This document shows positions 12,286-30,863 of a DNA stretch of 64,000 nt, piece by piece. The notes under the pieces are model-generated. The model searched no databases. It was given only the letters and a program-made list of their open reading frames with translations, and was not told where the DNA came from. Position 1 is the first letter of the stretch. Each line of letters begins with the position of its first letter. The stretch lies in assembly GCA_015232365.1 (NCBI GenBank), contig JADFZU010000005.1, forward strand, positions 19,683 through 83,682, written 5' to 3'. The position numbers were made by a program, and so were the translations under genes. The DNA comes from Magnetococcales bacterium. GTDB lineage: Bacteria; Pseudomonadota; Magnetococcia; Magnetococcales; JADFYX01.

Positions 12286-13071
12286 ATGGGACGGCGAGCC
12301 TTAATAGTCGGAAACTGGAAAATGAACGGGTTGATTGAGATAACCCGTGGTTTAGCAGGAGATATTCTTGCTGGGTTAACTAATAGAGAGAAAAAACGGA
12401 TGATGTGCGAGGTGGTGATCTGTCCCCCTTTCACAGGACTGTATAATCTAAGCGAGTTTTTGGCTGGTTCAGCACTAAAACTTGGTGGGCAGAACATGTC
12501 CGAGTATACTGCTGGTGCTCATACAGGTGAGATTTCCGGCATTATGTTGCGTAATGTTGGTTGTTGGTATGTTCTTCTTGGCCACTCTGAAAGACGGGCC
12601 GATAATTTTGAAGATAATGACCAGGTAGGGAGAAAGACTGCTGCTGCACTTCGTGATGGATTGGTACCTATTGTCTGTCTTGGTGAAACATTAGAAGAGA
12701 GGGAGCAATCCCGTACTCTAGAGGTGATTGAAGCTCAGCTATCGGCAGTTTTATCAGAGTTTTCTGCTAGTAAGGGTAAATCTCATCAGTTGGTTCTGGC
12801 TTATGAGCCTGTATGGGCTATTGGTACTGGTAAAAACGCCACTCCAGAGCAGGTGCAGGAGGTTCACGCATTTATTCGCAAACTGCTTGCCGATGCACTA
12901 GGGGCAGAGTTTGCTGATAAAATACGCATTCTTTATGGCGGTTCGGTAAAACCTGATAATGCAGAAAAACTTTTTAGGTTAGATGATGTTGATGGTGGTT
13001 TGATTGGCGGAGCATCTTTAAATGCCTCGGATTTTTTAGCAATTATTGATGCTTACCCAAATAATCTATAA
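12286..13071 (+). CDS. tpiA: Triosephosphate isomerase
   Basis: GNWKMNG, GHSERR and AYEPVWAIGTG motifs. I place the start at ATG 12286, preceded by aaagggga; the 65-aa extension in the ORF track is non-homologous. Confidence 0.95.
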   Translation: MGRRALIVGNWKMNGLIEITRGLAGDILAGLTNREKKRMMCEVVICPPFTGLYNLSEFLAGSALKLGGQNMSEYTAGAHTGEISGIMLRNVGCWYVLLGHSERRADNFEDNDQVGRKTAAALRDGLVPIVCLGETLEEREQSRTLEVIEAQLSAVLSEFSASKGKSHQLVLAYEPVWAIGTGKNATPEQVQEVHAFIRKLLADALGAEFADKIRILYGGSVKPDNAEKLFRLDDVDGGLIGGASLNASDFLAIIDAYPNNL

Positions 13072-13141
13072 TATACGATTTTTAAATTATAAATAGATAG
13101 GTACTTTTTGTCGGTTTGATTCTAATGGAGTAGGGTTAGTT

Positions 13142-13522
13142 ATGGATTTAGTAGTTACGGTTGCACATATAATTGCATGTTTTACACTCATTTTTGTAGT
13201 GCTCTTGCAAAAAGGTAGTGGAGCCGATATGGGGGCAGCGTTTGGCGGTGGCAGCTCAGAGAGTGTTTTTGGAGCACGAGGTTCAGGTAGTTTTCTTGGT
13301 AAGTTAACTGCTGGTGTTGCAACCATCTACATGCTAACCAGCCTTACCCTGGCTTTTTTCACTACAAAGCAGGGAGACGGGGTCTCAGTAATGGAGAAAG
13401 CAACTATTGAACAGAAGGTAGCTCCAGTTGAGGTTCCTGCATCGCCGATGCCGCCAAAATCAGGTGCAGCGGAGTCAAATTCATCACCAGCTACAGCCAA
13501 GCCAATTCCTCTGCCAGAGTAA
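13142..13522 (+). CDS. secG: Preprotein translocase subunit SecG
   Basis: VVLLQKGSGADMGAAFGGG...FGARG motif and two TM helices. The tpiA-secG synteny is classical. Confidence 0.85.
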   Translation: MDLVVTVAHIIACFTLIFVVLLQKGSGADMGAAFGGGSSESVFGARGSGSFLGKLTAGVATIYMLTSLTLAFFTTKQGDGVSVMEKATIEQKVAPVEVPASPMPPKSGAAESNSSPATAKPIPLPE

Positions 13523-13554
13523 CATTTTGCCAGAGCTGTTTCAGTCATATAAGA

Positions 13555-13602
13555 TAAAAAACCCCGGTCAATTGATCTATCTTGGCCGGGGTTTTTGTTT
13601 TT
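13555..13602. terminator. Bidirectional rho-independent terminator (secG / 13602-14651 gene)
   Basis: aaaaaaccccgg...ccggggtttttgtttttt: stem ccccgg (13562-13567) / ccgggg (13586-13591), with an A-run upstream and T-runs downstream. Confidence 0.7.
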
Positions 13603-14651
13603 TATTTAGCGTGTCGATAATGATTCGCCATAATCTCGTTTTTTCTAGCACACCAGCCATTATATAGATCTGCCCAAGCATTGATATGTTGGGAGACCAG
13701 CCTCTCATTTTTTACATAGTTATAAGCGTTTGTTGCTAGTTTGTTGGCAATGTTCTGGTCTTTCGCAAGTTTTTTTAATTGCTGGCCGAACTCTTGGGGA
13801 GTCTCAAATAGTAAACCGGTTTTTTCATGGATAATAGTCGTGCCATATACTGTATTGCTTGCAATTACTGCTGAACTTGAAGCAGAGGACTCAAGATATT
13901 TTACATCTGATTTAGCCAGGTTAAAAAAACTATTACCAAGAATGCATAGGGATATATTGAGCTTTTTCAAGAAATCCATATATTTATTGCGTGATAATAG
14001 TGGAAAAAACCGTTTGTTTGTAGAGGTAATAGAGTTGAATATATCATGGTCGCCAACAATCCATGTCTCTACTCTTACCCCTTCAGCCTCAAGCTCTGCT
14101 ATAGCTCTGTTATACTCATCTTGAATAGTATACCAGTCCTGGTAGTGGTCTAGGCCTGCTGCGTAACCAATAATAACCGGACCTTCCTGACCTCTCTTAT
14201 CAATAAAATCTTCAATGTGCTCTAGTTGGTTGGTAATAACGGCAACTTCACTGTTTAAAGGTCTGATTCTCTCTGCAAGTTGCAAAGTGCTGCACTGGAC
14301 AGCATGGCAAGAACTGATAAAAGCTTCTATGGACTGACCATAATCAACAGGAGCTTGTTTGGCATATCTGGATTCAGGATTCAGGTGCATTAGGTCGTCA
14401 TCAATCTCATAAACAGTAAATTTTCCAGCCTGTATTAATCCATCTAACAGCGGTTTGAATTCTTGATTTAATGGAGCTCTTTGTATAACAACAATGTCAG
14501 CATTTTGAACTATTTCATCAAACTCTTTTTGGGTAATATCGGAGAAGCAGGTTATTTTAAAGTCACCAGAGTTGTTTAAGATTTTTCTAGGCATATCCAG
14601 GCGGTATGGAGAGCAGACTGGATTTGTAGCAAATTGGTAAATATGCTTCAC
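13602..14651 (-). CDS. Putative GT-B fold glycosyltransferase (family 1-like), function unknown
   Basis: The C-terminal half resembles the GT1 nucleotide-sugar binding region (YLESSAS..VIASN..YGTTIIHEKTGLLFETPQEF). The N-terminal half is not recognisable. Solitary gene bracketed by terminator-like structures. Confidence 0.4.
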   Translation of the reverse strand: MKHIYQFATNPVCSPYRLDMPRKILNNSGDFKITCFSDITQKEFDEIVQNADIVVIQRAPLNQEFKPLLDGLIQAGKFTVYEIDDDLMHLNPESRYAKQAPVDYGQSIEAFISSCHAVQCSTLQLAERIRPLNSEVAVITNQLEHIEDFIDKRGQEGPVIIGYAAGLDHYQDWYTIQDEYNRAIAELEAEGVRVETWIVGDHDIFNSITSTNKRFFPLLSRNKYMDFLKKLNISLCILGNSFFNLAKSDVKYLESSASSSAVIASNTVYGTTIIHEKTGLLFETPQEFGQQLKKLAKDQNIANKLATNAYNYVKNERLVSQHINAWADLYNGWCARKNEIMANHYRHAK

Positions 14652-14671
14652 AAAAAGTGCCTTTTTTATTT

Positions 14672-14740
14672 AAAAAAAATCATGGGATTGGTCTGGGAAG
14701 GTGGGTTGCCCCTTCCCAGTGGGTTGGGGCTAAGCCCCAA
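14672..14740. repeat. Dispersed repeat family R2, copy 1 (double hairpin downstream of ettA)
   Basis: atgggattggtctgggaaggtgggttgccccttcccagtgggttggggctaagccccaa contains stems ctgggaagg/ccttcccag and ttggggc/gccccaa. About 70% identical by eye to 51751-51818. Confidence 0.6.
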
Positions 14741-14751
14741 TTTTCAAAGGT

Positions 14752-16431
14752 CTAATGGGTTAGTTTTTTGTATTTAACCCGTTTTGGATTATCAGCATCT
14801 ACACCCAACCGTTTGTGTCGGTCAGCTTCATAGTCCTGATAGTTTCCGGCAAAAAAGGTGACTTTCGAGTCGCCTTCAAAAGCTAGAATATGGGTGGCGA
14901 TACGGTCAAGAAACCAGCGGTCATGGGAGACAACAATGGCACTACCGGGAAACTCATTCAGAGCCTCTTCTAAAGCTCGTAGAGTTTCAACATCAAGATC
15001 GTTGGTTGGCTCATCCAGAAGGAGAACGTTGCCGCCAGCTTTTACCACTTTGGCAAGGTGGACCCGGTTGCGTTCACCGCCGGAGAGAAATTTAATCTTT
15101 TTCTGCTGATCAGCCCCCTTGAAATTAAACCAGGAGACATAGGCCCTTGAGTTTACCTCACGGTCGCCAAGATCAAGCATGTCTTTATCCTCGGAGATAA
15201 TATCCCAAACATTTTTTTCCGGGTCCATTCCCTCCCGGCTTTGATCTACATGGGCCAGTTTAACCGTCTCACCAAGGTTTAATGTACCGCTGTCTGGAGA
15301 CTCTGTACCGCTCATCATTCGCAGAAATGTGGTTTTACCAGCACCATTGCCGCCAATAATGCCCAATATTCCCCCTTGGGGCAGCATAAACGAGAGGTCA
15401 TCGATCAATAGTCGATCACCAAAGCCCTTGCAGAGGTTTTTTGCCTCTAATACCACATCACCAAGACGAGGGCCGGTAGGTATAAACAGGGTGTTGGTCT
15501 CACGCCTTTTCTCTCTGGATATTCTTGACATCTCTTCATAAGAGCGGAGGCGGGCTTTACCCTTTGACTGTCGGGCTTTTTGCGAGGAGTTTACCCACTC
15601 AAGCTCAGTTTTAAGCCGTTTAGAGAGAGAGTCGCCCTCTCGTTTTTCTTGAGCTAAACGGTCGCTCTTCTGTTTGAGCCATGAGGAGTAGTTGCCCTCC
15701 CATGGAATACCACGGCCCCGGTCAAGCTCGAGAATCCAACCGGCAACATTATCAAGAAAATAACGGTCATGGGTCACAGCCACTACAGTGCCAGGATAGT
15801 CGTGAAGAAACCTCTCAAGCCAGGCGACGGATTCGGCATCAAGATGGTTGGTAGGTTCGTCAAGGAGTAGCATATCCGGGGCCGATAGCAGTAGTCGGCA
15901 TAGAGCTACCCGGCGAATTTCACCTCCTGATAGTTTCGTTACGTCGGCATCCCAAGGTGGTAGACGCAGAGCATCTGCGGCTATCTCCAGTTTCCGGTCT
16001 AGATCCCAACCATCAATTTGATCTATGGACTCTTGAAGTTCGCCCTGTTCTTGAATCAAGGCGTTCATCTCGTCATCGTCAGTGATTTCTCCAAACTTCA
16101 TGGAGACTTCATTAAAGCGGTCCAGCAGAGCTTTGGTCTCAGCAACTCCTTCCTCTACATTACCCCGAACATCTTTGTTAGGGTCCAACAGTGGCTCCTG
16201 GGGGAGGTATCCAGCCTTAACTCCTGCTGCTGGTGCTGCCTCACCATTAAACTCTGTATCAAGGCCAGCCATAATTTTAAGTAGTGATGATTTACCAGAT
16301 CCGTTAAGGCCAAGAACGCCAATTTTTGCACCTGGATAAAATGATAGGCTGATATCTTCCAAGATAACCCTTTTCGGTGGGACTACCTTGGTTACTTTAT
16401 GCATGGTGAAAATATATTGAGGATTTGCCAT
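14752..16431 (-). CDS. ettA: Energy-dependent translational throttle protein EttA (ABC-F ATPase)
   Basis: Two ABC cassettes (GLNGSGKSS / GGNGAGKTT, LSGGE signatures) and the characteristic N-terminus MANPQYIFTMHKVTKVVPPKR. No TM domain. Confidence 0.95.
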   Translation of the reverse strand: MANPQYIFTMHKVTKVVPPKRVILEDISLSFYPGAKIGVLGLNGSGKSSLLKIMAGLDTEFNGEAAPAAGVKAGYLPQEPLLDPNKDVRGNVEEGVAETKALLDRFNEVSMKFGEITDDDEMNALIQEQGELQESIDQIDGWDLDRKLEIAADALRLPPWDADVTKLSGGEIRRVALCRLLLSAPDMLLLDEPTNHLDAESVAWLERFLHDYPGTVVAVTHDRYFLDNVAGWILELDRGRGIPWEGNYSSWLKQKSDRLAQEKREGDSLSKRLKTELEWVNSSQKARQSKGKARLRSYEEMSRISREKRRETNTLFIPTGPRLGDVVLEAKNLCKGFGDRLLIDDLSFMLPQGGILGIIGGNGAGKTTFLRMMSGTESPDSGTLNLGETVKLAHVDQSREGMDPEKNVWDIISEDKDMLDLGDREVNSRAYVSWFNFKGADQQKKIKFLSGGERNRVHLAKVVKAGGNVLLLDEPTNDLDVETLRALEEALNEFPGSAIVVSHDRWFLDRIATHILAFEGDSKVTFFAGNYQDYEADRHKRLGVDADNPKRVKYKKLTH

Positions 16432-17373
16432 TTATCTGTTTCCAGTTTTCAGTGGTGTTAACCAGGCCGCATGTTTATGGTGACGACCATTAACTACATC
16501 AAAATAGAGGCTCTGGACTCTTTTGGTTATGGGGCCAGCTTTACCGCTTCCGATTGTTCTGCCATCCAACTCCCGGATTGGGGTTATTTCAGCAGCAGTT
16601 CCAGTGAAGAATGCTTCGTCAGCAATCAAAACTTCATCACGTGGGAAACGTTGTTCTACAATCTCAACTCCGATCTCTTTAGCTAAAACAAATACGGTGT
16701 CACGGGTGATGCCATCCAAGGCAGAGTCTAGAGGAGGGGTGATGATCCGGCCATTTTTTACAATAAAAATATTCTCCCCAGAGCCTTCAGAGACATACCC
16801 TTCAGTATCAAGGAGCAGAGCCTCTTCAAAACCACAGGATAGAGCCTCTGTTTTAGCCAGAATTGAGTTTGAATAGTTACCAACTGCCTTGGCTCTGGTC
16901 ATTGTGACATTGGGATGGTGCCGGGTATATGAAGAGGTTTTAATACGAATTCCGTTGGTCATTCCATCCTCGCCAAGGTAGGCTCCCCACTCCCAGGCAG
17001 CAATAGAGACATGAACTTTACAGTTTGCGGTATTGATTCCCATACTCTCTGCACCAAAAAATACCAATGGGCGTATATAGGCTGAAGGGAGCCTGTTCTC
17101 TTCTACTGCGGCAATGCATGCGTGGATAATCTCATCTTTACGAAATGGGATCTTCATACCCAAAATATGGGCAGACTTAAATAGTCTGTTTATATGTTCT
17201 GAGAGGCGAAAAATAGCAGGGCCATCCACACCTTCATAACAGCGTATGCCTTCAAACACCCCCATACCGTAGTGCAGTGTGTGGGTTAGGACGTGGACCT
17301 TGGCATCACGCCAATCAACCATCTTCCCGTCCATCCATATTTTTCCGTCTCTATCTCCCATGGAATTACTCAA
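16432..17373 (-). CDS. ilvE: Branched-chain amino acid aminotransferase
   Basis: Fold-type IV PLP enzyme: HYGMGVFEGIRCY, PSAYIRP, TRAKAVGNYSNS, EGSGENIF, TGTAAEITPI. Confidence 0.95.
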   Translation of the reverse strand: MSNSMGDRDGKIWMDGKMVDWRDAKVHVLTHTLHYGMGVFEGIRCYEGVDGPAIFRLSEHINRLFKSAHILGMKIPFRKDEIIHACIAAVEENRLPSAYIRPLVFFGAESMGINTANCKVHVSIAAWEWGAYLGEDGMTNGIRIKTSSYTRHHPNVTMTRAKAVGNYSNSILAKTEALSCGFEEALLLDTEGYVSEGSGENIFIVKNGRIITPPLDSALDGITRDTVFVLAKEIGVEIVEQRFPRDEVLIADEAFFTGTAAEITPIRELDGRTIGSGKAGPITKRVQSLYFDVVNGRHHKHAAWLTPLKTGNR

Positions 17374-17643
17374 TGGTCTGTTCCTTATTTCGTCAACTTT
17401 TTTGAGGTTTATATAGGCATTAATGTCAAAAAAAAATCACTTCAACCTCTCATTGTCGCTTTCTATGGCTCAGTGATCAAGCCATGTTGCAAATAATTGT
17501 AAAAAAAAAGCTGAAAATATTTTTTTTTTGCAGTTTATCAAAAAAAACAAGTCTGTTGGAATAGGGCAGATACTTAAAAACAAACAAATTTTTTTTGTGG
17601 TTTTCTTTAGTAAAATTTATTGAAAGATTGAGGGGTTAATTGA

Positions 17644-17659
17644 TGGTACTGGATTTGCT
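17644..17659 (+). promoter_or_regulatory. Sigma-54 (-24/-12) promoter candidate for the 17697-18557 operon
   Basis: TGGTACtggatTTGCT versus the consensus TGGCAC-N5-TTGCW: GG and GC have exact spacing and there is one mismatch. It lies 38 nt upstream of ATG 17697. Long A/T tracts lie 60-150 nt upstream. Confidence 0.55.
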
Positions 17660-17696
17660 TTGAGTGCTGATAGATACCATAAACTAGGAGGATAAA

Positions 17697-18110
17697 ATGA
17701 GTGGACCTATTGGCTCAGTAATTTCACCCCTGCAACAGCTAAGAGGGCAAAACCCAGGTAGTAGCAGAGTAGAAATACATTTAGGTAGCAGTGAATATCA
17801 GTTTAATCAGGTTTTGGACCTGGTTGCACCTGGAGGTGGTGGTAGTGGGTACTTGTCTAGCGGCAACGCTGCTCACTACGACGAAGAGTCGATAGATCAG
17901 GTGAACGCTATGCTGAATGAGAGAGACAGTCAAAAGAGTGCTTGGAACAGTATGGCTGCCACAGTGCAAAAGCACAATTTTGACTCTACTGGTCTTTCGG
18001 CCAATCTAGGGCGGAACTCTTACAAGGTTTACTCAAATGCACTGACAAATGTTGATATCTCTAAACAGAGTGAGGTAATTGCCCCGGGTGGGATAAACTT
18101 TCAGTACTAG
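17697..18110 (+). CDS. Hypothetical protein (137 aa, no recognisable domain)
   Basis: Good RBS (aggagg, 7 nt before the ATG). Gly/Ser/Asn/Gln-rich, with no TM helix or signal peptide. Confidence 0.5.
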   Translation: MSGPIGSVISPLQQLRGQNPGSSRVEIHLGSSEYQFNQVLDLVAPGGGGSGYLSSGNAAHYDEESIDQVNAMLNERDSQKSAWNSMAATVQKHNFDSTGLSANLGRNSYKVYSNALTNVDISKQSEVIAPGGINFQY

Positions 18111-18170
18111 CCAGATGAAATATCAGGTTGGAATTAAATTTTAATTAGCAGATGTTTATATAGAAAGGTA

Positions 18171-18557
18171 ATGATAATGGACACAATTGGTGCTGAATTT
18201 GGCCGGAAAATACAAAGCTCTCTACAACAGCTATCTGAAGAGGCTCAGAGAGAGCGTCTAGAGTGTGCTGTTGCAATGTTTGATGGTTTGCGAGTTGTGC
18301 TTGCTGAGGAGGATCAGAGAGGTTCTCCTACTGGATACCTTACTGTTCAAGGCTGGACCAAGCTTCTGAATGGCTGGGATCAGAATATTCTTGGTGCTTC
18401 ATCTCGAAAGCTAAAGTATATGGTTGAGTTTGTTACTGAAGTTATGGGGCGAGAAGGGATGTATGCTCCACCTCTAGGGGTACTCTTCACAGAGATGAAA
18501 TCATTTTTGGAGAGTGCTGCAAAATCGCCTGGAGCAAATATTCAAGTTGCTGCTTGA
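18171..18557 (+). CDS. Hypothetical protein (128 aa, predicted helical, no recognisable domain)
   Basis: Follows the previous ORF by 60 nt; the alternative ATG at 18177 is equally plausible. A strong terminator at 18669-18719 ends the operon. Confidence 0.5.
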   Translation: MIMDTIGAEFGRKIQSSLQQLSEEAQRERLECAVAMFDGLRVVLAEEDQRGSPTGYLTVQGWTKLLNGWDQNILGASSRKLKYMVEFVTEVMGREGMYAPPLGVLFTEMKSFLESAAKSPGANIQVAA

Positions 18558-18568
18558 TATAGGTTAAA
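18550..18568. repeat. R1-family right-arm fragment overlapping the stop codon of the 18171-18557 ORF
   Basis: ctgcttgatataggttaaa matches 1153-1171 (ctgcttgatctaggttaaa) at 18/19 positions and resembles 3391-3410 (ctgccgaatataggttagaa). Confidence 0.5.
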
Positions 18569-18668
18569 TCAACTAACCAGCATATTTTATTAATTATTCT
18601 GGTTAGGATAGCAAAGCTTGTCTAGTGGAGTAAATCTATCTCAAGTAAATGTTGTGTTTTTGACGTTT

Positions 18669-18719
18669 ACAACAAAAAAAACCTGTTTCCATATTTTGGA
18701 AACAGGTTTTTTTTGTTGT
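18669..18719. terminator. Bidirectional rho-independent terminator
   Basis: acaacaaaaaaaacctgtttcc-atatttt-ggaaacaggttttttttgttgt: 9-bp stem cctgtttcc/ggaaacagg with symmetric A/T runs. Confidence 0.8.
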
Positions 18720-18780
18720 AAATGGTTGGTATATAATTGTTTTTATTGAATGGTACTAAATTTGCGTTAATAAACTTTAT

Positions 18781-19209
18781 TCAACACTGGACCCATGGCA
18801 GTTTATGGAACCGCCAGCCGTTAACACTGGAGCGATGATGGTTTTTATCTCTATCGCCTTCAAACCCTTCATCGACGTGGTAGACTTTTTTAAAACCATT
18901 TTCAATGAGGAAATTTCCGGCATCGATTGAGCGGTGACCAGATCTGCAGAGCAGAATTATAATTTGGTCTTTACGAGCGACTAATAGCATCTCCTTAAGA
19001 AAATCAGGGTTTAGCTCATAGTCGGGGGCATCTTGCCATGGAACATTAATAACTCCTGGTGGGCTGCCGACAAAGAAATGTTCAATTTCTGCCCTGATAT
19101 CAATAAAGGCCACATCTTTTGTCTGCACCATCTCATAGGCTTCATAAGGGGAAAGATGGGTTAGTTTTGCATTTGAAGGGCTGTGGGGAGCGGATGGTAT
19201 CATAGTCAT
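18781..19209 (-). CDS. Single-domain rhodanese-like sulfurtransferase
   Basis: Active-site loop LLCRSGHRS and rhodanese framing (FIDIRAEIE...G..PGVINVPW). Confidence 0.8.
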   Translation of the reverse strand: MTMIPSAPHSPSNAKLTHLSPYEAYEMVQTKDVAFIDIRAEIEHFFVGSPPGVINVPWQDAPDYELNPDFLKEMLLVARKDQIIILLCRSGHRSIDAGNFLIENGFKKVYHVDEGFEGDRDKNHHRSSVNGWRFHKLPWVQC

Positions 19210-19514
19210 ATCATCTTACTTCGAAATTTATTAAAGTGAAAGTATTTCAAAGGTTTATATAAAAGAGTGAAAAAAATTTGAGTTTCATTAAAAAAAATTG
19301 TCGAAACTTATCAAGATTCATGTCATTATCTGACTTTGACTGTTATTAAGATGACTGTTTCTACAATTTAGTTCTAGGTATTTTGTAAAATATCCAGGTA
19401 AAATGTTGGAGCTGAGTGATTACATACCGATAGTAGAGGGGATCGTTATGATAACAAAATCACAACTCGCAGACATACTATATCTCAACTTATGCCATAA
19501 AACTAAGAGATGAT

Positions 19515-20189
19515 ATGCTAGTTTCTAATAAACAACGTTCTAAACGCAAACAAAGCAAGCTGAATAGCAGAGGAAGGCAGTGGGCAGGTAAGCCGTCAAT
19601 TCTGGAAAATCAACATGTTCAGCGTCGAAACAAGAAAAGTGGCTGGAGTGGCGGTTCACATACAGAGTTTAAATCCGGTATGCGTAGTGCAAGCAGTTGG
19701 GGTTCTGAGCCTAAAGGCGGAGAGTGGCGTACCAGGTTTCTAGAGGGTGGTTTTGTTATTGCTGCAGGTCTTTCTGATGTTATAAAAAATGGAGTGGGAT
19801 ATCTGTTTAGCTTGGTTGGTGTAGGGCAGAGAGGGGACGATGATTCTGTTGTCATGCCAGGAAAAATTAATTTATTCGATGAGAACGGCTCTATCTTATC
19901 TGACCGGGTTGAACCAGAACTAGAACCAGGATATGATACCGACCAGAATCGGGAGTGGCTGCAGAGCAGTGCAGAGGCTCAAACAGATACAACTCTTGTA
20001 AGTCCTGGAGAGTTTTTACCACTTTCTGTTGAACAACCGCTATCCAATTCTGATCTACTCTGGGATAATATTGAGTGGAGTAAGATGAATTCTCAAGACC
20101 AACAAGAGATTGGGCTTGGCGAGGATGAGTTGGAAGATCAGGCTGGTGCTTTACGTTCCATGTTTTCAAATCGTGATACTGCCTCTTAG
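19515..20189 (+). CDS. Hypothetical protein: basic N-terminus, one hydrophobic segment, acidic C-terminus
   Basis: KQRSKRKQSKLNSRGR... N-terminus, hydrophobic GGFVIAAGLSDVIKNGVGYLFSLVGV and a D/E-rich tail. No recognisable domain; the start is uncertain. Confidence 0.35.
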   Translation: MLVSNKQRSKRKQSKLNSRGRQWAGKPSILENQHVQRRNKKSGWSGGSHTEFKSGMRSASSWGSEPKGGEWRTRFLEGGFVIAAGLSDVIKNGVGYLFSLVGVGQRGDDDSVVMPGKINLFDENGSILSDRVEPELEPGYDTDQNREWLQSSAEAQTDTTLVSPGEFLPLSVEQPLSNSDLLWDNIEWSKMNSQDQQEIGLGEDELEDQAGALRSMFSNRDTAS

Positions 20190-20291
20190 GCTTACCAACT
20201 AAAAATCCTTTCTTGATTCGTTTTTCTCCATTGGCAACCCTTGGATATTTTCTATAACCATCAGTTAAAATCCTGGGATTAATTGGTCAAT

Positions 20292-20335
20292 CTGGTTTCG
20301 GCAGTTGGGCGTACGTTAATGGTGCAACATATTGG
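20292..20335. repeat. Dispersed repeat family R1, half copy
   Basis: tttcggcagttgggcgtacgttaatggtgcaac aligns with the 3404-3360 reverse complement (attcggcagttggacgtgcattaatggcat) and with 3292-3325. Confidence 0.55.
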
Positions 20336-20467
20336 TTTGTCTGGTAAATCAGAAAAAATCGAATTAACCTTATTGGTGATGAGGCTTTTTCCTGGTTTTC
20401 CCGGTTCATCAAAATATTGTTCCAGTGACGCGGGAATGGTTGGCTTATCTATGGTCAGTAAGCCATT

Positions 20468-22384
20468 ATGAGTTCCAAGATCTTTAACGATGCACTACCT
20501 CCAGGATCAAAACTGCTCTGGTTTGAGATCATTAAAGTTCTTGGCAAGGGTGGTTTTGGAATCACCTATCTTGGCAAAGATACAAAGCAGGATAAGTTTG
20601 TTGCCATCAAAGAGTATCTACCTACAGCTTTTGCCTCTCGCACTGAGGATATGGAAGTGCGTCCCAACTCTCCAGGAGATGCTAAAACCTTTGAATGGGG
20701 GTTGGTGCGGTTTCTTAAAGAGGCACAAATTCTTGCCCGGTTTAAACACTCATCTATAGTTAGGGTAGTCAGCTTTTTCAGAGATAGCTCCACTGCCTAT
20801 ATGGTTATGGAGTATATTGAAGGTAATGGGTTGGATTATGTCTTGAAAAAGAGAAAAACCCTCTCTGAAGATTATATAAAACAGATTCTGCCGCCTCTTT
20901 TAGATGGTCTGCAGATGATGCACAGTGCCAACTTTATCCATCGAGATATTAAACCTCCCAATATCATGATACGTAAGGATGGCAGGCCGGTACTGCTGGA
21001 TTTTGGCTCTGCAAGGCAGTCTGTTGCTGGTCAGGGTGTGGAGATGACTAGCCTTTTGAGTATTGGTTACTCGCCGTTTGAACAGTATGATTCGTCAGGT
21101 GACCGCCAAGGAGCTTGGTCTGATATATATGCTCTGAGCGGTGTGCTCTATCGGGCAATAACAGGTAAAAAACCCCCTGATGCTTCCCAAAGAATAGCCG
21201 CTCGTCTTCGAAGTGATCCCGATCCAATGCTCAGTGCTGTTGAAATGGGAGCCGGTCGCTATGACGAGTCATTTTTAAAGGCAATTGATCACGCTTTAAT
21301 GGTTCTGGAGACTGAGCGCCCCCAATCTATTGCCGAGTGGAGGGTGGAGTTGTTCGGTGCTGTCAAAGATTTAAAGCCAGCACCGGCTTCAAAGTCAGCA
21401 TATACATCTGCTGGTTCCAAAGTTGGAACTCCCAAGAAGAGAAAAAAAAGTAGCTGGCGAAGTTTTATAGCTTCGGTTAGTGAGTTGGGCGGTAATCAAG
21501 AAAATAGAGAGAGCATTACTGCTATTTGTAAGGATGGTATCACTCCTGTAAAGGGTGATGTGAAACGCAAAGTTTCTGTTGCGGCAGATAAAAACCCCCA
21601 ATCTGAGCCTACCCCTGTCTTAGTCGTATCCAAGCCGGAAAAAGAGCAAACTTTAAAAGCAGACGGCAACTGGATTGAGCAGAAAACTAAAATGGAGTTT
21701 ATCTGGGTTCCCGCTGGGAAGTTTATGATGGGGTCCAGAGAGAAAGAGCCTGGACATAAGCCATCTGAAGGGCCGGTGCATGAGGTAGAGTTGGACGGTT
21801 TTTGGTTTGGGAAATATCCTGTTACCTGGGAGCAGTGGCGACAGGTTATGGGAAACTATCCCAGCGGGTTGTTTGATCCGGTCAAAGCTAAACATCCGGT
21901 TGAGCGGGTCAGTTTTTCTGCGATAAATAAATTTTTAAGCCGTTTTTCCAATATTGGGGATGGAGAGAACATCTATCGACTTCCAACAGAGGCGGAGTGG
22001 GAGTATTCCGTTCGTTGCGGAACCAATAACCTCTTCCATTTTAAGGGTGGATCTAAGGAGTTGGCCACTTATGCGTGGTACAAAACCAACAGCGAAGGTG
22101 GAACCCACCCAGTTGGCGAAAAACAGCCCAACAAGTGGGGTTTCCACGACCTGATGGGTAACGTATGGGAGTGGGTTTCAGACTGGTATGGGCAAGATTT
22201 TTATAAAATCAGTCCGGCAAAAAACCCTGTTGGTAAAATGGATGAGAGTAAAAAAAGAGCACTCCGTGGTGGGAGTTGGGCCAGTCCCCCCAAAGAGTGC
22301 CGCTCCGCCAATCGCCAAGGGGTCTCAGAAAAGATAAAAAACAGTATGATTGGTTTTCGGGTGGTTCGGGTTAAACGTAGATAG
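20468..22384 (+). CDS. Ser/Thr protein kinase fused to a C-terminal formylglycine-generating-enzyme (FGE/SUMF1-like) domain
   Basis: Kinase: GKGGFGITY, VAIKE, HRDIKPPNIMI, DFGSAR, GYSPFEQ. C-terminal domain: MEFIWVPAGKFMMGS, YPVTWEQW, LPTEAEWEY, GNVWEWVSDWY, RGGSW....RSANR. Confidence 0.9.
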   Translation: MSSKIFNDALPPGSKLLWFEIIKVLGKGGFGITYLGKDTKQDKFVAIKEYLPTAFASRTEDMEVRPNSPGDAKTFEWGLVRFLKEAQILARFKHSSIVRVVSFFRDSSTAYMVMEYIEGNGLDYVLKKRKTLSEDYIKQILPPLLDGLQMMHSANFIHRDIKPPNIMIRKDGRPVLLDFGSARQSVAGQGVEMTSLLSIGYSPFEQYDSSGDRQGAWSDIYALSGVLYRAITGKKPPDASQRIAARLRSDPDPMLSAVEMGAGRYDESFLKAIDHALMVLETERPQSIAEWRVELFGAVKDLKPAPASKSAYTSAGSKVGTPKKRKKSSWRSFIASVSELGGNQENRESITAICKDGITPVKGDVKRKVSVAADKNPQSEPTPVLVVSKPEKEQTLKADGNWIEQKTKMEFIWVPAGKFMMGSREKEPGHKPSEGPVHEVELDGFWFGKYPVTWEQWRQVMGNYPSGLFDPVKAKHPVERVSFSAINKFLSRFSNIGDGENIYRLPTEAEWEYSVRCGTNNLFHFKGGSKELATYAWYKTNSEGGTHPVGEKQPNKWGFHDLMGNVWEWVSDWYGQDFYKISPAKNPVGKMDESKKRALRGGSWASPPKECRSANRQGVSEKIKNSMIGFRVVRVKRR

Positions 22385-22530
22385 ATTGCTTATTATTTAC
22401 GCAACATATAAAGCAAAACGCCTGAATTTTAGGCGTTAAGCACAATTCTTGAGCAGTAGCAGCCGTTTTTTTTCCTCTATAGTTTGTAATAATCCTGAAA
22501 AATTGATCATTATTCGAAAGTTAAAATTGC

Positions 22531-22546
22531 TGGCGTTCGTTTTGCA
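22531..22546 (+). promoter_or_regulatory. Sigma-54 (-24/-12) promoter candidate for amt
   Basis: TGGCgttcgttTTGCa has exact GG-N10-GC spacing and lies about 80 nt upstream of ATG 22628. This is consistent with NtrC/sigma-54 control of ammonium transporters. Confidence 0.55.
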
Positions 22547-22627
22547 GTTCATGGCAGAGACTAAACCTAAATTCTGCGGTTAAAAGAATCTAAATATCTG
22601 CTGATGACTTCAAGGGAATATCTGTAA

Positions 22628-23917
22628 ATGAAGTTTGTTATATCACTACTGACAGTTTTATTATTGCCTGCTGCCGTTTTTGCAGATGACGGTTCTGGTT
22701 TGAATATGGCTAATACTGCCTGGATCTTAACGGCAACAGCTTTGGTGCTTTTCATGACTTTGCCTGGTTTGGCTCTCTTTTATGGCGGGCTGGTCAGAAC
22801 CAAAAATATTTTATCAATCATGATGCAGTGTTTTGCTATTAGCTGTCTGGTCTCCATACTCTGGTTTGCTTTTGTCTATAGTCTGGCGTTTGGTGATGGT
22901 GGCTCTTTGAACGGTATCATCGGCGGTCTTGAGAAGAGTTTTATGATGGGAGTTACTACGGATAGTCTTTCCGGTGATATTCCTGAGACAGTTTTTGCCA
23001 TGTTCCAGATGACCTTTGCGATTATTACCCCGGCTTTGGTAGTTGGTGGTTTTGCTGAGCGGATGAAATTTTCTGCTGTAATGCTTTTTACCGCTTTATG
23101 GATGGTTCTTGTTTACGCACCTATCTGTCATTGGGTATGGGGTGGAGGATGGCTGGCAGAGATGGGGTTTCGTGATTTTGCAGGTGGATCTGTAGTTCAT
23201 ATCAATGCTGGTATGGCCGCTCTAGTTGCTGTTATTGTTATGGGTAACCGGAAAGGTTTTCCTAAAACCCCAATGATGCCTCACAACATGACCATGGTCT
23301 TTACTGGTGCTTCCATGTTATGGGTAGGTTGGTACGGATTTAACGCTGGTAGTGCCCTATCGGCTAACGGCTCTGCAGGAATGGCAATGCTTGTTACCCA
23401 TCTTGGGGCAGCATCTGGCTCAATGGCCTGGATGACTATGGAGTGGGTTCGTCATGGTAAACCCAGTCTTTTGGGTATCGTGACCGGAATGGTTGCCGGA
23501 TTGGGAACAATAACTCCGGCCTCTGGTTATGTTGGGCCTGTTGGTGGTATTGTGATCGGATTTATTGCTGGTGTGGTCTGTTATCTTGCTACCCAGCATC
23601 TTAAACAGAAGCTTCAGATTGATGACTCTCTTGATGTATCCCCGGTTCACGGGGTTGGCGGTATAGTTGGAACTCTTCTTACTGCGGTATTTGCAGCCCC
23701 ATTTTTTGGCGGATTAGGCTTTGATGAGGGGAGTGGAATGGCCTCACAATTTACTGTTCAGATGATTGGAGTAACAGCCACCATTGTTTGGAGTGGAATT
23801 CTGTCTTACATTATCTTCAAAATTGTTGATGATATGGTCGGTTTACGGGTAACAGCCGACGAAGAGACCGAGGGTCTTGATTTGGTTCTCCATGATGAAA
23901 GAGGTTACAATATGTAA
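22628..23917 (+). CDS. amt: Ammonium transporter (Amt family)
   Basis: Signal peptide plus 11 TM helices. Motifs: AWILTATALVLFMT.PGLALFYGG, DFAGGSVVHINAG, WYGFNAGS, VHGVGGIVGTLL. Confidence 0.95.
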   Translation: MKFVISLLTVLLLPAAVFADDGSGLNMANTAWILTATALVLFMTLPGLALFYGGLVRTKNILSIMMQCFAISCLVSILWFAFVYSLAFGDGGSLNGIIGGLEKSFMMGVTTDSLSGDIPETVFAMFQMTFAIITPALVVGGFAERMKFSAVMLFTALWMVLVYAPICHWVWGGGWLAEMGFRDFAGGSVVHINAGMAALVAVIVMGNRKGFPKTPMMPHNMTMVFTGASMLWVGWYGFNAGSALSANGSAGMAMLVTHLGAASGSMAWMTMEWVRHGKPSLLGIVTGMVAGLGTITPASGYVGPVGGIVIGFIAGVVCYLATQHLKQKLQIDDSLDVSPVHGVGGIVGTLLTAVFAAPFFGGLGFDEGSGMASQFTVQMIGVTATIVWSGILSYIIFKIVDDMVGLRVTADEETEGLDLVLHDERGYNM

Positions 23918-24007
23918 TTCGAAAACATTTTTTACTAATCAATTCGTCGGATATTTTAAGTTGAGTATCCAGGCAATAACTTATCACTTTGCTAAAAAGG
24001 ATTTATA

Positions 24008-25429
24008 ATGTCAGACCAAGCAGCCGTAAAAAAAACGTTGGATATGATCAAAGAGAATGACGTTCATTTTGTCGATTTTCGTTTCACAGATTTTCATGGT
24101 AAATGGCAGCATATCACAGCACCAGCTACCCAGGTTGATGAAGACTCTTTTGTAAACGGATTTGGTTTTGATGGTTCATCCATAGCTGGTTGGTGTGTTA
24201 TTGACCAGTCAGATATGGTCTACATGCCTGATGCCTCAACCGCTACGATGGACCCGTTTACCGATGTGCCAACTATCATAATTATTTGTGATATTGTTGA
24301 TCCATTCACTGGCGAAGGTTATGCTCGAGATCCGCGTGCTGTTGCCAAGCGTGCTAAAGAATACTTGAAGTTTACCGGCGTTGGCGATCAAGTGTTGATC
24401 GGCCCGGAAGCTGAGTTTTTTATCTTTGACTCAGCCCGTTTTGGTACAGGAATCAACTTTGCATCCGTAGAGCTTGACTCAGAAGAGGGTGTCTGGAACT
24501 CCACCACCGATTATGAAGATGGTAACATGGGGCACCGTCCTGGTGTTAAAGGCGGCTACTTTCCTACTGCTCCAGTAGACTCACTACACGACCTTCGTTC
24601 TGAAATGTGCATGGTGATGGAAGATATGGGTATCACCATTGAGTTCCACCATCATGAGGTTGCCACAGCAGGTCAGTGTGAAATCGACATGAAGTATGGC
24701 GATTTGCTGAAAATGGCTGATGATATCCAAAGGTATAAATATGTGGTCCATAATGTTGCTCATGCAGCAGGCAAAACAGCGACATTTATGCCAAAACCTC
24801 TTGCTGGTGATAACGGTTCTGGTATGCACACCCATATCTCCATTTGGAAAAATGGCAAGCCTGTATTTGCAGGCAACCAATATGCTGACCTCTCTGAAGA
24901 GGCTCTATATTTTATCGGCGGCATCAAAAAACATGCTCGTGCCCTCAACGCTTTTACCAACTCTTCAACTAACTCATACAAACGGTTGATTCCAGGTTTT
25001 GAAGCTCCAGTTTTGTTGGCTCATTCAGCACGCAACCGTTCTGCTAGTATTCGGATTCCTGCAGCTAGCAACCCGGCAGCAAAGCGTTGTGAGGTCCGTT
25101 TTCCAGATCCAACTGCCAACCCATACATGTGTTTCGCTGCCATCATGATGGCAGGTTTGGACGGAATTCAAAACAAGATTGATCCTGGTGCACCAATGGA
25201 TAAAAATCTTTACGATTTGCCACCAGAAGAGCTGGCAGGTATTCCAACCGTGTGTGGTTCATTACGGGAAGCGTTGGCAGCATTGAGTGCCGACCGTGAG
25301 TTTTTGACTCAAGGCGAAGTATTCAGCGATGATCTTATTGATGCTTGGATTGATCTGAAGATGGATGAAATTCATAAAGTTGAGCATACACCGCATCCTG
25401 CTGAGTTTGAGATGTACTATAGCGTTTAA
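24008..25429 (+). CDS. glnA: Glutamine synthetase type I (with the adenylylation-site motif)
   Basis: [41 protein letters not shown] and NLYDLPPEE (adenylylatable Tyr). Confidence 0.97.
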
Positions 25430-25460
25430 TCAGCACTATTTTTTCAAATTTAGTTTAATA

Positions 25461-25495
25461 AAAAAGGCCATCTGCACTGCAGGTGGCCTTTTTTG
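25461..25495 (+). terminator. Rho-independent terminator after glnA
   Basis: aaaaaggccatctgca-ctgcaggtggccttttttg. Confidence 0.75.
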
Positions 25496-25588
25496 CTTAT
25501 GCTGGGATACCTTTTTGACGATTAATATTGGAAATAGAGTTGATGGTTACTGCAGCTTACAGTAAAAAAATCTACTAACACCTATGAG

Positions 25589-26122
25589 ATGATACGGGAG
25601 ACAGGTGTGGGGCAATATTTAGATCCTGAAGGTTGGTTGTCCTTTGACGATTATATGCATGGGGTAAGGCGGGAGGTTGTTGACAAACAGCCAGTTGCCA
25701 AGCGGCTCTCGATGCCAGATGAGCCTGAAAGCTGGGTTTCAGAACAGGATTATTATGTAAATAATGTTCGCAGGTCAATTCCTAAACCAAGTCCAGAGTC
25801 TTATATAGAGTGTCTTAGACCGGCCGGTCCTGAAGAACATTATGTTGCACCGCCAGAGGCAAGTATAACCATGATTGAGGCGATAGATGAAGTTATGGCT
25901 CCGACCAAAAGTCTAGAGTTGGCATCGCGACTTATGATGATGGCTAGAGAGGATCAGCGAGAGTGTGATGCCGGTTTGATTGAGCCGGAAGAGTTGGAGC
26001 GTCGCCGGATTGCCGCAAGCATCATTCAAGAGAATCATAACCGCCGGGCACAACGAATTGCCGATTGGTATCTTGAGAACTATTTCCGGGCTTTTGAAAC
26101 TCCAGAATCCGAAGATAATTAA
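25589..26122 (+). CDS. Hypothetical acidic protein (177 aa)
   Basis: ORF only, with no recognisable domain. The start is uncertain (weak RBS). The next ORF follows 12 nt downstream. Confidence 0.4.
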   Translation: MIRETGVGQYLDPEGWLSFDDYMHGVRREVVDKQPVAKRLSMPDEPESWVSEQDYYVNNVRRSIPKPSPESYIECLRPAGPEEHYVAPPEASITMIEAIDEVMAPTKSLELASRLMMMAREDQRECDAGLIEPEELERRRIAASIIQENHNRRAQRIADWYLENYFRAFETPESEDN

Positions 26123-26134
26123 CTTGGCTATTTC

Positions 26135-27037
26135 ATGAAGCAGAACATTTTTCTGAGCTTTTTCGTAGGGGCCTTGCTCTCTATATCCATATGTATATCA
26201 CCAGGCTTGCTCTGGGCAAATAGAGGCTCTGTAGCTGATCTGGTTTCTGAGTTGGACTCTCTAATAGAGAGTGTAGACAGCTCCAAACTAGCAACTCCTG
26301 CCTTTATTATCGAAGTTAAAAAAATCCTTAAAAAATATCGACCAGCTATACAGTATAAGCTCCTTGTCGATACATTTTCCGATGGCAATTTTACCCATAA
26401 CCCAGAGTGGAAGGTTCTGCGGGGTATCTTTCGGGTTGACGGTAACGGTGCACTTCTATCTACAACTGGTGTGAGTGATGACAGCTTGAAGATGCAAAAA
26501 GGCGGGGTAGTTGCTAAAAAGAGTGCCCAGAATAATGAGATCGGTCAAATTATGGGGCTGATGCAGGTTCTATCAGGAGAGGGGAAAACAGCTAAACCTA
26601 CCAATAAGATTAAACGCTCTATCATATACAGCAATGTTCAAACTCCCAACAGTTTTGACCTCTCTCTCTCTTTTCGTTCAGGTCATGAACAAGGTCATGG
26701 TGAGGTTGGCTTGTTTGTAGATAACCCCCAGAAGACCGGATACCGTCTGTTGCTTTCTGCCGACCCAATGGTTAGCCAATCTATATCCTTGATCCGTTAT
26801 GTGCGGGGACGGTCACAGGTGTTGCGTGGCAGTGGTGGAATCTATCTTGGCAACGGCTTGAGCCACCAGATTAGGTGGCGGCGGCTGGAGAGTGGAATGA
26901 TGAGTGTATGGGTTGATGGGGTTGAAATGCTAAGGGTTCGAGATGCCAGCCTATGGAACGGTTTTTCTGGATTGGTTCTAGTCAATGACCGTGGTGAGTT
27001 TGCTTTTGATAATATATCGTTGCAATCTATAGAATAA
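26135..27037 (+). CDS. Secreted hypothetical protein, possibly concanavalin-A/LamG-like (DUF1080-like) fold
   Basis: Signal peptide MKQNIFLSFFVGALLSISICISPGLLWA. DTFSDGNFTHNPEWKVLRGIFRVDGNGALL near the start of the domain and GEFAFDNISL at the end are reminiscent of DUF1080/LamG jelly-roll proteins. Confidence 0.45.
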   Translation: MKQNIFLSFFVGALLSISICISPGLLWANRGSVADLVSELDSLIESVDSSKLATPAFIIEVKKILKKYRPAIQYKLLVDTFSDGNFTHNPEWKVLRGIFRVDGNGALLSTTGVSDDSLKMQKGGVVAKKSAQNNEIGQIMGLMQVLSGEGKTAKPTNKIKRSIIYSNVQTPNSFDLSLSFRSGHEQGHGEVGLFVDNPQKTGYRLLLSADPMVSQSISLIRYVRGRSQVLRGSGGIYLGNGLSHQIRWRRLESGMMSVWVDGVEMLRVRDASLWNGFSGLVLVNDRGEFAFDNISLQSIE

Positions 27038-27776
27038 TTTTCAGAAGATCTTCGGCCAGGGTAATTGGTCCAGAGTAGTGTTTGGCACACTCAGCAGCTC
27101 GGAGGCTATCTGGACCATTGATTGGGTAAAAGTGGGTTGGTACCAGATGTTTTACCTGTGCCTGCTGGGCTACCTGACCAGCTTCTAGAGCTGAGAGATG
27201 TCCGGGTATTTTTCCTTCTGCAAGTGTTGAGCAGTCGCAAACCAGCAGATCGGTTTTTTTTGCAAGGGTAATGATATCTTGGTCAAGATCGCAATCTCCT
27301 GAAAAAACAGCAGATTTACCATACTCATCAAAACGGTAAGCAAGGCTTTTAAAGTTTTTCGAGTGGACTGTGTTGCAAGTTGTGATGGTAAGGCTACCCA
27401 GGCGCCATTTAACCGGAGCCTCTTTGATGAAAAATGGAAACTTTGTTGGTGGAGTGACAACAGGCCGGATAATATTGTTGAAAAAATTGATAAAATTTTC
27501 TGGGCCGTAGATGTGAAAAGGTTTGCTGCGTTGGAGGGTTGGCAGACGAAAAGCGTGGACCATAGAGGTTAGGTCGCCTATATGGTCACTGTGGCTGTGG
27601 GTGATAAATAGAGCATCAATTTCACTAAAGCTGGTTTTGTTATGCTCCAACTGGCGTAAAATACCACTGCCACAGTCTATTAGATAGTTTTTGTTTGTAG
27701 CTTGTAAAAGATAACCAGAGGCACAACGTTCAACGGATGGAATTCCAGTACCACTGCCTAAAATAGTAATACGCAT
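27027..27776 (-). CDS. MBL-fold metallo-hydrolase (RNase Z / beta-lactamase superfamily)
   Basis: MRITILGSGTGIP, the HSHSDH zinc motif, and later FSGD and THF. Confidence 0.85.
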   Translation of the reverse strand: MRITILGSGTGIPSVERCASGYLLQATNKNYLIDCGSGILRQLEHNKTSFSEIDALFITHSHSDHIGDLTSMVHAFRLPTLQRSKPFHIYGPENFINFFNNIIRPVVTPPTKFPFFIKEAPVKWRLGSLTITTCNTVHSKNFKSLAYRFDEYGKSAVFSGDCDLDQDIITLAKKTDLLVCDCSTLAEGKIPGHLSALEAGQVAQQAQVKHLVPTHFYPINGPDSLRAAECAKHYSGPITLAEDLLKIIL

Positions 27777-27788
27777 AGTGTTGGTTGT

Positions 27789-28250
27789 CTATCCGAAAAC
27801 ATCAATTTTATGGGTTGTTGGTTTTGGCTGGGTATTGCCTTGGAGTTTGTCTTTAGCTGTTGGCAGGTCCGCACTATGAATGCTGGCTAGGCGTTGAAAA
27901 AAAGGATCAGATGATGGCTCAGAGGCATGCTTTCCCTGTTGTGGTTCTTTTTCTACGGTTTTACCGTCTAAAGGGTTTTGAGCCTGCTCATGGGTTATCT
28001 CTTTAGGGTGGCTTTCTGAAAGAAAGTTGGTTAATGCCCGGCTGATTTTTACCCGTGAAGAGTCTGAAAAGTCACTTATGTCACGGTTTTTTTCAACTGT
28101 ACGTTTCAGGTCAGAATGTTTCTCTTCTTGGTCGTTATTGATTTTTTCACGTCTGGCTTTAATTTCCTCAGTTCGCTCTTTATTGCGGGCTGCATGAGCA
28201 ACCTGTTCGGAGTGTGACGAACCAGATATCTGTTGTGTTGACTCAGCCAT
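27789..28250 (-). CDS. Hypothetical highly charged, probably disordered protein (153 aa)
   Basis: ORF immediately upstream of the MBL gene on the same strand (12-nt gap). K/E/S/Q-rich with no TM helix. Confidence 0.4.
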   Translation of the reverse strand: MAESTQQISGSSHSEQVAHAARNKERTEEIKARREKINNDQEEKHSDLKRTVEKNRDISDFSDSSRVKISRALTNFLSESHPKEITHEQAQNPLDGKTVEKEPQQGKHASEPSSDPFFQRLASIHSADLPTAKDKLQGNTQPKPTTHKIDVFG

Positions 28251-28500
28251 TATGGTTCACCTTTAGTCAGAATAGAGGAGCCTTACCTGACTATATTATT
28301 AGCCATAATTTAGTAAAAAAGCAACGCAATTTAGCAAGATCCTAGAGATGGTGGTTGGTTGGCTGTCAATCAAATTCATTGCATAGTTTGCTACCAGTTT
28401 TGTACAATGATGGTGCGATCAGGTTTATAAAGAGATATTTATATGTTTGATTCAGGTAGTTTTCAGCTATGAAAACTACTGCTTTTTGGAGGTGAAGTCT

Positions 28501-29632: not shown

Positions 29633-29674
29633 TGCTATATTTATGCCAATTTTTTTTTAATATGAGGCATCTAA

Positions 29675-30346: not shown

Positions 30347-30371
30347 TAATAATTAAATAGGAGAGAGCACA

Positions 30372-30857: not shown

Positions 30858-30863
30858 TAGGTT

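Follow-up and report, generated by a model that had tools for sequence, protein, structure and literature searches.

The RNA polymerase holoenzyme containing sigma-54 (RpoN) forms a closed complex at its promoters and needs an enhancer-binding ATPase to remodel this complex. Operons of this type, for example those behind glnAp2 and pspA or the middle-class flagellar operons, share the geometry TGGYAC-N5-TTGCW, a short leader and an A/T-rich upstream region. The same arrangement was found in front of two adjacent open reading frames, ORF1 and ORF2, in a stretch of 64,000 nucleotides (nt) from a Magnetococcales bacterium (contig JADFZU010000005.1 of assembly GCA_015232365.1), which is referred to as the window. 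The promoter-like element, named P1, is more strictly conserved than its flanks, and as in known sigma-54 operons a conserved block lies between -30 and -110, the usual zone of architectural proteins. Unlike in the known systems, neither a linked activator gene nor a recognisable upstream activator sequence was found at the locus, its spacer (TGGWT) is conserved, and its products fall outside any functional class known to be controlled by sigma-54. The predicted regulatory architecture is that of a standard sigma-54 operon, and the products belong to two unannotated families restricted to one order. As a whole, we read the locus as an RpoN-driven gene pair whose products act together, are short-lived and serve an ExeA-like envelope ATPase; we assign this reading a probability of about 0.6. 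According to Table 1 of PMC3372290, RpoN is encoded in the one finished Magnetococci genome surveyed there; an rpoN gene is absent from the window. A full-text literature search returned no sigma-54 or rpoN regulon study for Magnetococc*, and the sigma-54 regulon of the magnetotactic cocci appears essentially unexplored. The locus overturns nothing and opens no long-standing question; its value is that of a defined entry point to regulation in a poorly studied group. Its main features are the following.

17644-17659, + strand: sigma-54-type promoter P1, TGGTAC-TGGAT-TTGCT, with the -24 GG at 17645-17646 and the -12 GC at 17657-17658
17686-17691, + strand: ribosome-binding site AGGAGG, 5 nt 5' of the ORF1 ATG, with purine-rich equivalents in relatives
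17697-18110, + strand: ORF1, 137 amino acids (aa), acidic, cysteine-free, predicted to be mostly disordered
18177-18557, + strand: ORF2, 126 aa (128 aa from an alternative ATG at 18171), acidic, predicted to be all-helical
18664-18724, both directions: bidirectional intrinsic terminator, a 28-bp perfect hairpin with a 5' A run (A8) and a 3' T run (T8)

The gene products invite comparison with three further systems. C-termini ending in Ala-Ala serve as signals for ClpXP, as in the ssrA tag (...LAA), the RseA fragment (...VAA) and CtrA, which ends in AA. The ORF2 family likewise ends in VAA, AAA, QAA or EAA on a low-confidence and presumably flexible tail, the last two residues of which are conserved; unlike the situation with these tags, a third of the family, mostly long forms, lacks Ala-Ala, and no adaptor or protease gene is linked to the locus. 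ExeA/GspA and MshM are AAA+ proteins with a peptidoglycan-binding domain, which act in secretin and pilus assembly with a small partner, ExeB/GspB. The ancestral third gene of the Magnetococcales unit resembles them in that it encodes an AAA_22 domain and a C-terminal peptidoglycan-binding domain beside small accessory genes, and one ORF2 paralogue is found near a secretin/ATPase cluster of the MSHA type. It differs in carrying SPOR instead of PG_binding_1 and in the 19 kb that separate the genes in the window lineage; moreover, neither ORF1 nor ORF2 contains a membrane segment or resembles GspB. With FlgM-FlgN the pair shares its size, its acidity, the disorder of ORF1 as opposed to the helicity of ORF2, the adjacency of the genes and the sigma-54 promoter. 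Sequence or fold similarity to FlgM-FlgN was not detectable, however, and the neighbours are ettA, ilvE, the ExeA-like gene and a rhodanese gene.

P1 is composed of TGGTAC (17644-17649), the spacer TGGAT and TTGCT (17655-17659), which results in the spacing GG-N10-GC. It is oriented towards ORF1 at a distance of 38 nt from the ATG at 17697, and its transcription start is expected near 17670. An earlier note on this DNA had pointed to the site, its exact -24/-12 spacing, the 38 nt and the ribosome-binding site, and all of this was borne out when the sequence was read again. One exact match to TGGYAC-N5-TTGCW was found in the window, where 0.20 would be expected, and at least one match was present in 19 of 100 shuffled sequences; when one mismatch was allowed, 5 matches were observed and 4.98 expected. 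Sites were also ranked with a simple weighted score of our own for agreement with the -24/-12 consensus, which can reach 19.5 at most. P1 is the top-scoring site of the 64 kb, and three of the top six sites (P1, 18751-18766, and 22531-22546 before amt) are intergenic and aimed at genes on the + strand. Thus, P1 stands above chance because it is conserved in relatives and not because of the motif statistics.

This conservation was followed across the order. A scan of GTDB with one genome per species, using a 10-sequence ORF2 alignment, yielded 18 loci with an ORF2 family member, all of them from Magnetococcales. A near-maximal sigma-54-type site lies upstream of the homologous genes in 16 of these 18 species-level genomes. 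It is correctly oriented and scores 17 to 19 at 15 of the loci; the sixteenth (L031/L032) carries TGGCTC-N5-CTTGCT 84 nt 5' of an ORF1-like gene in an unrelated genomic neighbourhood. Within the window clade the 16-mer TGGTAYTGGATTTGCT was found without further change in five distinct upstream regions. There, conservation includes the spacer (TGGWT), ends right after the -12 element and returns only at the ribosome-binding site, the 5' untranslated region in between not being conserved. The sequence TGGTAYYGGWYTTGCW was found again in distant GC-rich lineages whose remaining intergenic DNA is unalignable with that of the window. Counterparts of P1 are:

L008/L018: TTGGTACTGGTTTTGCAG
L012: TTGGTATTGGTTTTGCTT
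L019/L021: TGGTATCGGTCTTGCA
L026/L027: TGGCATTATTTTTGCT

The distance from the site to the first start codon amounts to 38-120 nt in the 16 species and in three different genomic contexts. Measured to ORF2, it is 470-630 nt in loci with an ORF1-like gene in between, and 75-120 nt in those with only an N-terminally extended ORF2. The site keeps its place in front of whichever gene leads the unit, a pattern which is expected of a functional promoter and otherwise hard to explain. Conservation is stronger in P1 than in the non-coding DNA around it, and P1 very probably represents a genuine RpoN-dependent promoter.

The start of ORF2 was placed at the ATG at 18177, because every homologue starts with MDTIG and GAAAGG is located 8 nt upstream. 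The earlier note had listed two ORFs of 137 and 128 aa without a recognisable domain; the length of ORF1 was confirmed and no Pfam domain was found, but ORF2 is better described with 126 aa. Its nine close homologues show 65-92% identity, with a mean column identity of 80%. The protein has an isoelectric point of about 5 and contains the motifs ERLECA, GxLTVxGW..L...W and YAPP as well as the C-terminal IQVAA. Among 43 family members R27, W60 and W67 are invariant, and ERLE.A and G.LTV.GW..L...W are nearly so. The structural model consists of five helices with a predicted local distance difference test score (pLDDT) of 69.7, which falls below 50 for residues 120-126; comparison with the PDB by Foldseek revealed no structural relative. 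When 1.84 billion representative proteins were searched with the ORF2 profile, 36 clusters were retrieved, 23 of them below 1e-10, and all clusters carrying a name belong to Magnetococcales. Two giant Patescibacteria proteins matching the profile by many short stretches were treated as repeat or compositional artefacts. The N-terminal extensions of the long forms were considered as fused ORF1, but profile-profile comparison found no similarity (probability 0.1). An Ala-Ala C-terminus (VAA, AAA, QAA or EAA) is present in 38 of 55 distinct members, with varying preceding residues; ORF2 of the window ends in QVAA, and every short form adjoining an ORF1-like gene ends in Ala-Ala. The proportion of nonsynonymous differences (pN) is 0.14-0.23 compared to a proportion of synonymous differences (pS) of 0.62-0.78, the synonymous sites being saturated, and ORF2 is under purifying selection.

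ORF1 is far more variable. In the window it is identical to a hypothetical protein from a metagenome-assembled genome of Magnetococcales. Its 12 homologues, all from Magnetococcales, show 33-85% identity, and it is hydrophilic and acidic, with no cysteine in any orthologue. The AlphaFold2 model has a pLDDT of 50 and two helices only, so that almost the whole protein is predicted to be disordered. Short motifs are the N-terminal MSGxIG, YQFNQVLDLVAP, W..MA, YK(V/I)YS and the C-terminal (V/I)(D/N)F. The distant positional orthologues are hyperdivergent and barely connected by BLAST; common to them are the N-terminal MS....., F...L....P (corresponding to YQFNQVLDLVAP in the window), W.L.A and (G/A)Y(K/R)IY(S/T), often together with a terminal VD(F/I). 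With a pN of 0.36-0.42 and a pS of 0.74-0.79, again at saturated synonymous sites, ORF1 evolves very fast except for four or five short linear motifs and is still under purifying selection.

Neither protein has a Pfam match at E<=1, and scans of both, of their distant homologues and of a neighbouring 224-aa protein against Pfam, NCBIfam, PADLOC and PHROGs returned nothing. Neither the two proteins nor their distant homologues matched a PDB sequence, the profile searches of the PDB yielding only spurious, biased matches to designed repeat proteins without a scoring stretch. The pair had been called an orphan, which holds in so far as no annotated family covers it; it does not consist of singletons, however, but of an order-wide family restricted to Magnetococcales. 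Wherever an ORF1-like gene occurs in the lineages examined, it adjoins ORF2, and every sufficiently long contig of close relatives shows the gene order ettA (-), ilvE (-), then ORF1 and ORF2 (+). The earlier note had named a pair that is not conserved together and ORFs without a coding signature as outcomes that would speak against it. We found the pair kept across Magnetococcales and, in both ORFs, a pN well below pS. These two order-specific families, which are under selection, one of them with a putative degradation tag and an ancestral link to an envelope ATPase, would be tractable for interaction and stability assays.

The unit is closed by the hairpin at 18664-18724, which has a folding free energy of -40.3 kcal/mol (z = -10.0 against shuffled sequences) on the + strand and of -35.1 kcal/mol (z = -9.8) on the - strand. 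Since an A run and a T run flank the stem, the terminator should be able to act both ways. A simple terminator scan missed it because the stem is poor in G+C, and the only Rfam hits in 17000-19600 were hairpin look-alikes below the threshold at this position. Relatives have an equivalent hairpin in the same place. The strong bidirectional terminator of the earlier note was thus recovered, with a perfect 28-bp stem and a z of about -10 on each strand. Together with the phylogenetic footprint of P1, the conservation of the pair and the coding signature, this supports at the level of sequence the proposal of a sigma-54-type promoter in front of a tightly regulated two-gene module.

The third gene of the ancestral unit is located elsewhere in the window:

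37332-39080, + strand: ExeA/MshM-like protein of 582 aa with an AAA_22 ATPase domain and SPOR at the C-terminus; in the ancestral order its gene comes next after ORF2

Its product matches AAA_22 with 2.2e-15 and SPOR with 1.4e-08; a match to the XrtA-associated ATPase model is weak and well under the cut-off. In 11 of the 18 species an ExeA-like gene encoding 580-960 aa, with N-terminal AAA_22 and C-terminal SPOR, directly follows ORF2. No terminator on the + strand and no sigma-70-like promoter was found in the gap of 120-180 nt between them (L018, L029, L026), which is consistent with a three-gene operon. In the window, DUF302 and TPR/PG_binding genes (- strand) come after the ExeA-like gene, the same arrangement as in L012, where the ExeA-like gene abuts ORF2. 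Only in the window lineage do about 18.8 kb (18558-37331) lie between the two. This stretch holds the rhodanese gene, the gene of the 224-aa protein, a Ser/Thr kinase-FGE-sulfatase fusion and, among further genes, amt and glnA, and it extends as far as GDP-mannose genes.

From these observations the following course of events can be proposed. The sigma-54 holoenzyme would sit on P1 as a closed complex and await an enhancer-binding ATPase encoded elsewhere. Activation would then produce a bicistronic mRNA of about 1.05 kb, which would start at about 17670 and end with the hairpin (18664-18724), and from it two cytoplasmic proteins specific to Magnetococcales, the disordered ORF1 and the helical-bundle ORF2. 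The motifs of ORF1 may dock on ORF2 or on a partner common to both; we consider the odds of an ORF1-ORF2 complex to be about even. The Ala-Ala at the exposed C-terminus of ORF2, which resembles the ClpXP tags of the ssrA and RseA type, suggests that this protein is short-lived. By this analogy turnover by ClpXP is conceivable, at somewhat less than even odds. Activator-gated transcription in combination with proteolysis would give rise to a sharp, transient pulse of ORF1 and ORF2. ATPases of the ExeA/MshM type help to assemble machines which span the peptidoglycan. Since the ATPase gene directly follows the pair in most lineages, an accessory or regulatory role for the ExeA-like ATPase seems the likeliest one; such a functional link is tentative and, in our estimate, clearly below even odds. 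A more far-reaching version, in which the two proteins would be the core of an undescribed Magnetococcales control module, with a pulsed helical adaptor and its disordered partner timing or localising a SPOR-anchored AAA+ ATPase that would help to build a peptidoglycan-spanning organelle, for example a secretin, a pilus or the cocci's unusual flagellar apparatus, possibly linked to the cell cycle, is improbable.

Several findings weigh against the reading of an RpoN-driven, short-lived pair serving an envelope ATPase. The P1 motif by itself is within chance, with 0.2 expected per window. In E. coli, sigma-54 binds many sites that drive no gene, as reported in PMC4591121. No upstream activator site common to all lineages was found, and no gene for an enhancer-binding protein, recognised by the GAFTGA signature, is present in the window or in the 33 fetched loci. 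As to turnover, 17 of the 55 distinct ORF2 members, mostly long forms, do not end in Ala-Ala, so that this end is suggestive of a ClpXP tag and not diagnostic. Because the ORF2 model is of only moderate confidence and found no fold match, a helical bundle is the most that can be claimed. As to the ATPase, no sigma-54 site was found before the displaced ExeA-like gene; lying 19 kb away and lacking such a site of its own, this gene is apparently not needed in cis by the pair. Furthermore, L024, L025, L030 and L031 have unrelated neighbours.

The 270 nt 5' of P1 contain several A or T runs of 8-10, and the GC content is 0.275-0.285 at 17400-17699 compared to about 0.45-0.48 in the flanking genes. 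The A/T tracts of the earlier note are therefore present, but the region it had considered suitable for looping belongs to the window clade only, and the module does not depend on it, because in L026/L027 no more than about 25 nt separate the promoter from the start codon of ilvE. Two conserved blocks were recognised in this region:

17451-17509, no strand assigned: far-upstream block CATTGTCGCTTTCT.TGGCTC.GTGA.CAAGCCATGTT...A-run, conserved in five window-clade upstream regions
17567-17639, no strand assigned: promoter-proximal block of the window-clade alignment, containing a dyad

Read on the - strand, the far block offers TTGATC (17480-17475), a 17-nt spacer and GACAAT (17457-17452), with 8 of 12 consensus matches; a sigma-70 consensus scan did not list this pair. 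It may be a weak candidate for a sigma-70-type promoter of ilvE or, equally, an activator site for P1. The dyad of the proximal block, TCTTT-N14-AAAGA at 17604-17627, is centred about 54 nt 5' of the predicted transcription start and forms a palindrome in the window and in L014. It corresponds with 1 mismatch to the E. coli Lrp consensus YAGHAWATTWTDCTR, a consensus from a distant organism, and occurs at the same offset in four of the five window-clade members. The window contains 6 Lrp-consensus matches at 1 mismatch compared to 1.14 expected. An architectural or regulatory protein may bind at the dyad, which is a lead and not an identification. Next to it, ilvE would be a plausible Lrp-type target. 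One further Lrp-like match (18578-18592) lies just after the ORF2 stop codon within the inverted repeat AACCAG...CTGGTT. Neither block was found in distant lineages. Sites for integration host factor upstream of P1 were rejected, since the consensus matches were inconsistent between relatives.

Two further sigma-54-type sites are found within 5 kb of P1, which together with it could seed a lineage-specific promoter model and help to assign activators:

18751-18766, + strand: sigma-54-type site P2, TGGTAC-TAAAT-TTGCG, just past the terminator
22531-22546, + strand: sigma-54-type site TGGCGT-TCGTT-TTGCA, 81 nt 5' of the amt start

P2 has counterparts of the form TGGCAY-N5-TTGCW, scoring 19 of 19.5, in four relatives (L016 6620, L003 900, L004 6814, L007 1733). 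It points into the rhodanese gene, which runs convergently on the - strand (18781-19209) and is met at its 3' end, and no ORF of at least 50 aa was found under it on the + strand. A transcript from P2 would be antisense to the rhodanese gene and might form a long leader for the gene of the 224-aa protein (19515) and the kinase gene. The amt site is kept as TGGCTT-TCGTT-TTGCT in L015/L003, and no comparable site lies directly 5' of glnA.

Three other explanations were weighed against the RpoN-driven pair. The earlier note had taken the neighbouring genes as a hint at nitrogen control, and P1 might accordingly belong to an NtrC-type regulon with amt-glnA, the two proteins acting in nitrogen or amino-acid metabolism, for example as modulators of assimilation enzymes. 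There is precedent in the disordered inactivating factors of cyanobacterial glutamine synthetase. The divergent neighbour ilvE, a gene for a glutamate-dependent aminotransferase, is found in 14 of the 18 species, a conserved sigma-54 site also precedes amt, which lies 4 kb downstream, and the Lrp-like dyad would suit amino-acid control. Among the window neighbours noted, however, only ilvE is ancestral. The proximity of amt-glnA is secondary, and this part of the hint is weak, because it stems from the lineage-specific 18.8 kb placed before the ancestral neighbour. Furthermore, no upstream site obviously common to P1 and the amt promoter was recognised, neither protein resembles any family of nitrogen metabolism, and the module was found away from ilvE in L024, L025, L030 and L031/L032. 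Thus, a nitrogen-regulated module is unlikely. A second explanation is a module of the flagellar or another type III export regulon. Like FlgM with FlgN or flagellin with FliS, ORF1 would then be exported or act in the manner of an anti-sigma factor, with ORF2 as its small helical chaperone, and sigma-54 would drive the genes as it does the middle-class flagellar genes in polar flagellates. The two proteins have a suitable appearance, the first being disordered, acidic, free of cysteine and about 140 aa long and the second acidic and helical with about 125 aa, and Magnetococcales are vigorous flagellates, which was counted in favour of this idea. Sigma-54 also controls flagellar genes in many Pseudomonadota, as reported in PMC12316311. 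On the other hand, scans against Pfam and NCBIfam at E<=1 recovered neither FlgM, FlgN, FliS or FliT nor any other family, Foldseek gave no PDB match, and roughly 30 loci have no flagellar gene beside the module, the only candidate being a FliG_C gene beyond ettA in L004/L005. We regard this explanation as quite unlikely.

The remaining explanation denies that P1 is a working promoter: the 16-mer would be a non-productive site of sigma-54 or a site of some other protein, and transcription would start from the A/T-rich DNA with sigma-70. Apart from the chance statistics of the motif, it can draw on weak sigma-70-like hexamers nearby, such as TAGATA-16-TAAAAT at 17671-17698, on the non-productive sigma-54 sites documented for E. 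coli in PMC4591121, and on P2, a conserved sigma-54 site with no ordinary gene after it. The sigma-70-like matches, however, number 8 compared to 5.9 expected and are not conserved. The conserved positions of the 16-mer are exactly those recognised by sigma-54, the site is always oriented to the genes, and its distance to the first start codon was held within 38-120 nt in the 16 species despite complete turnover of the surrounding sequence. A non-promoter site at this position is therefore very unlikely, and the RpoN-driven pair is retained as the preferred reading.

Some observations concern the paralogues and neighbours. A long-form ORF2 paralogue of 177 aa is encoded at 9001-9534 of L033; it has no Ala-Ala end, and no sigma-54 site was found for it. 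It lies 3 kb 5' of a cluster (12819-18534) of secretin (MshL type, Secretin_N_2), SPOR-TPR, MshE ATPase and T2SSF genes, and the remaining paralogous ORF2 loci have unrelated neighbours. The ilvE gene (16432-17373, - strand) starts with TTG. This start was favoured over the internal ATG at 17361, because L006 and L002 have ATG in the corresponding place and a conserved AAGGAA is spaced 7 nt upstream. The 224-aa protein (19515-20189, + strand) combines a very basic N-terminus with an acidic C-terminus and is conserved without a family match; in the window clade its gene is always located 5' of the Ser/Thr kinase-FGE-sulfatase fusion (20468-22384, + strand). In one clade, a FliG_C-only protein of 150 aa is encoded between secG and ettA (L004 1968-2420, L005 960-1412). 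The window lacks this gene and has a glycosyltransferase-like gene (13602-14651, - strand) at the same position.

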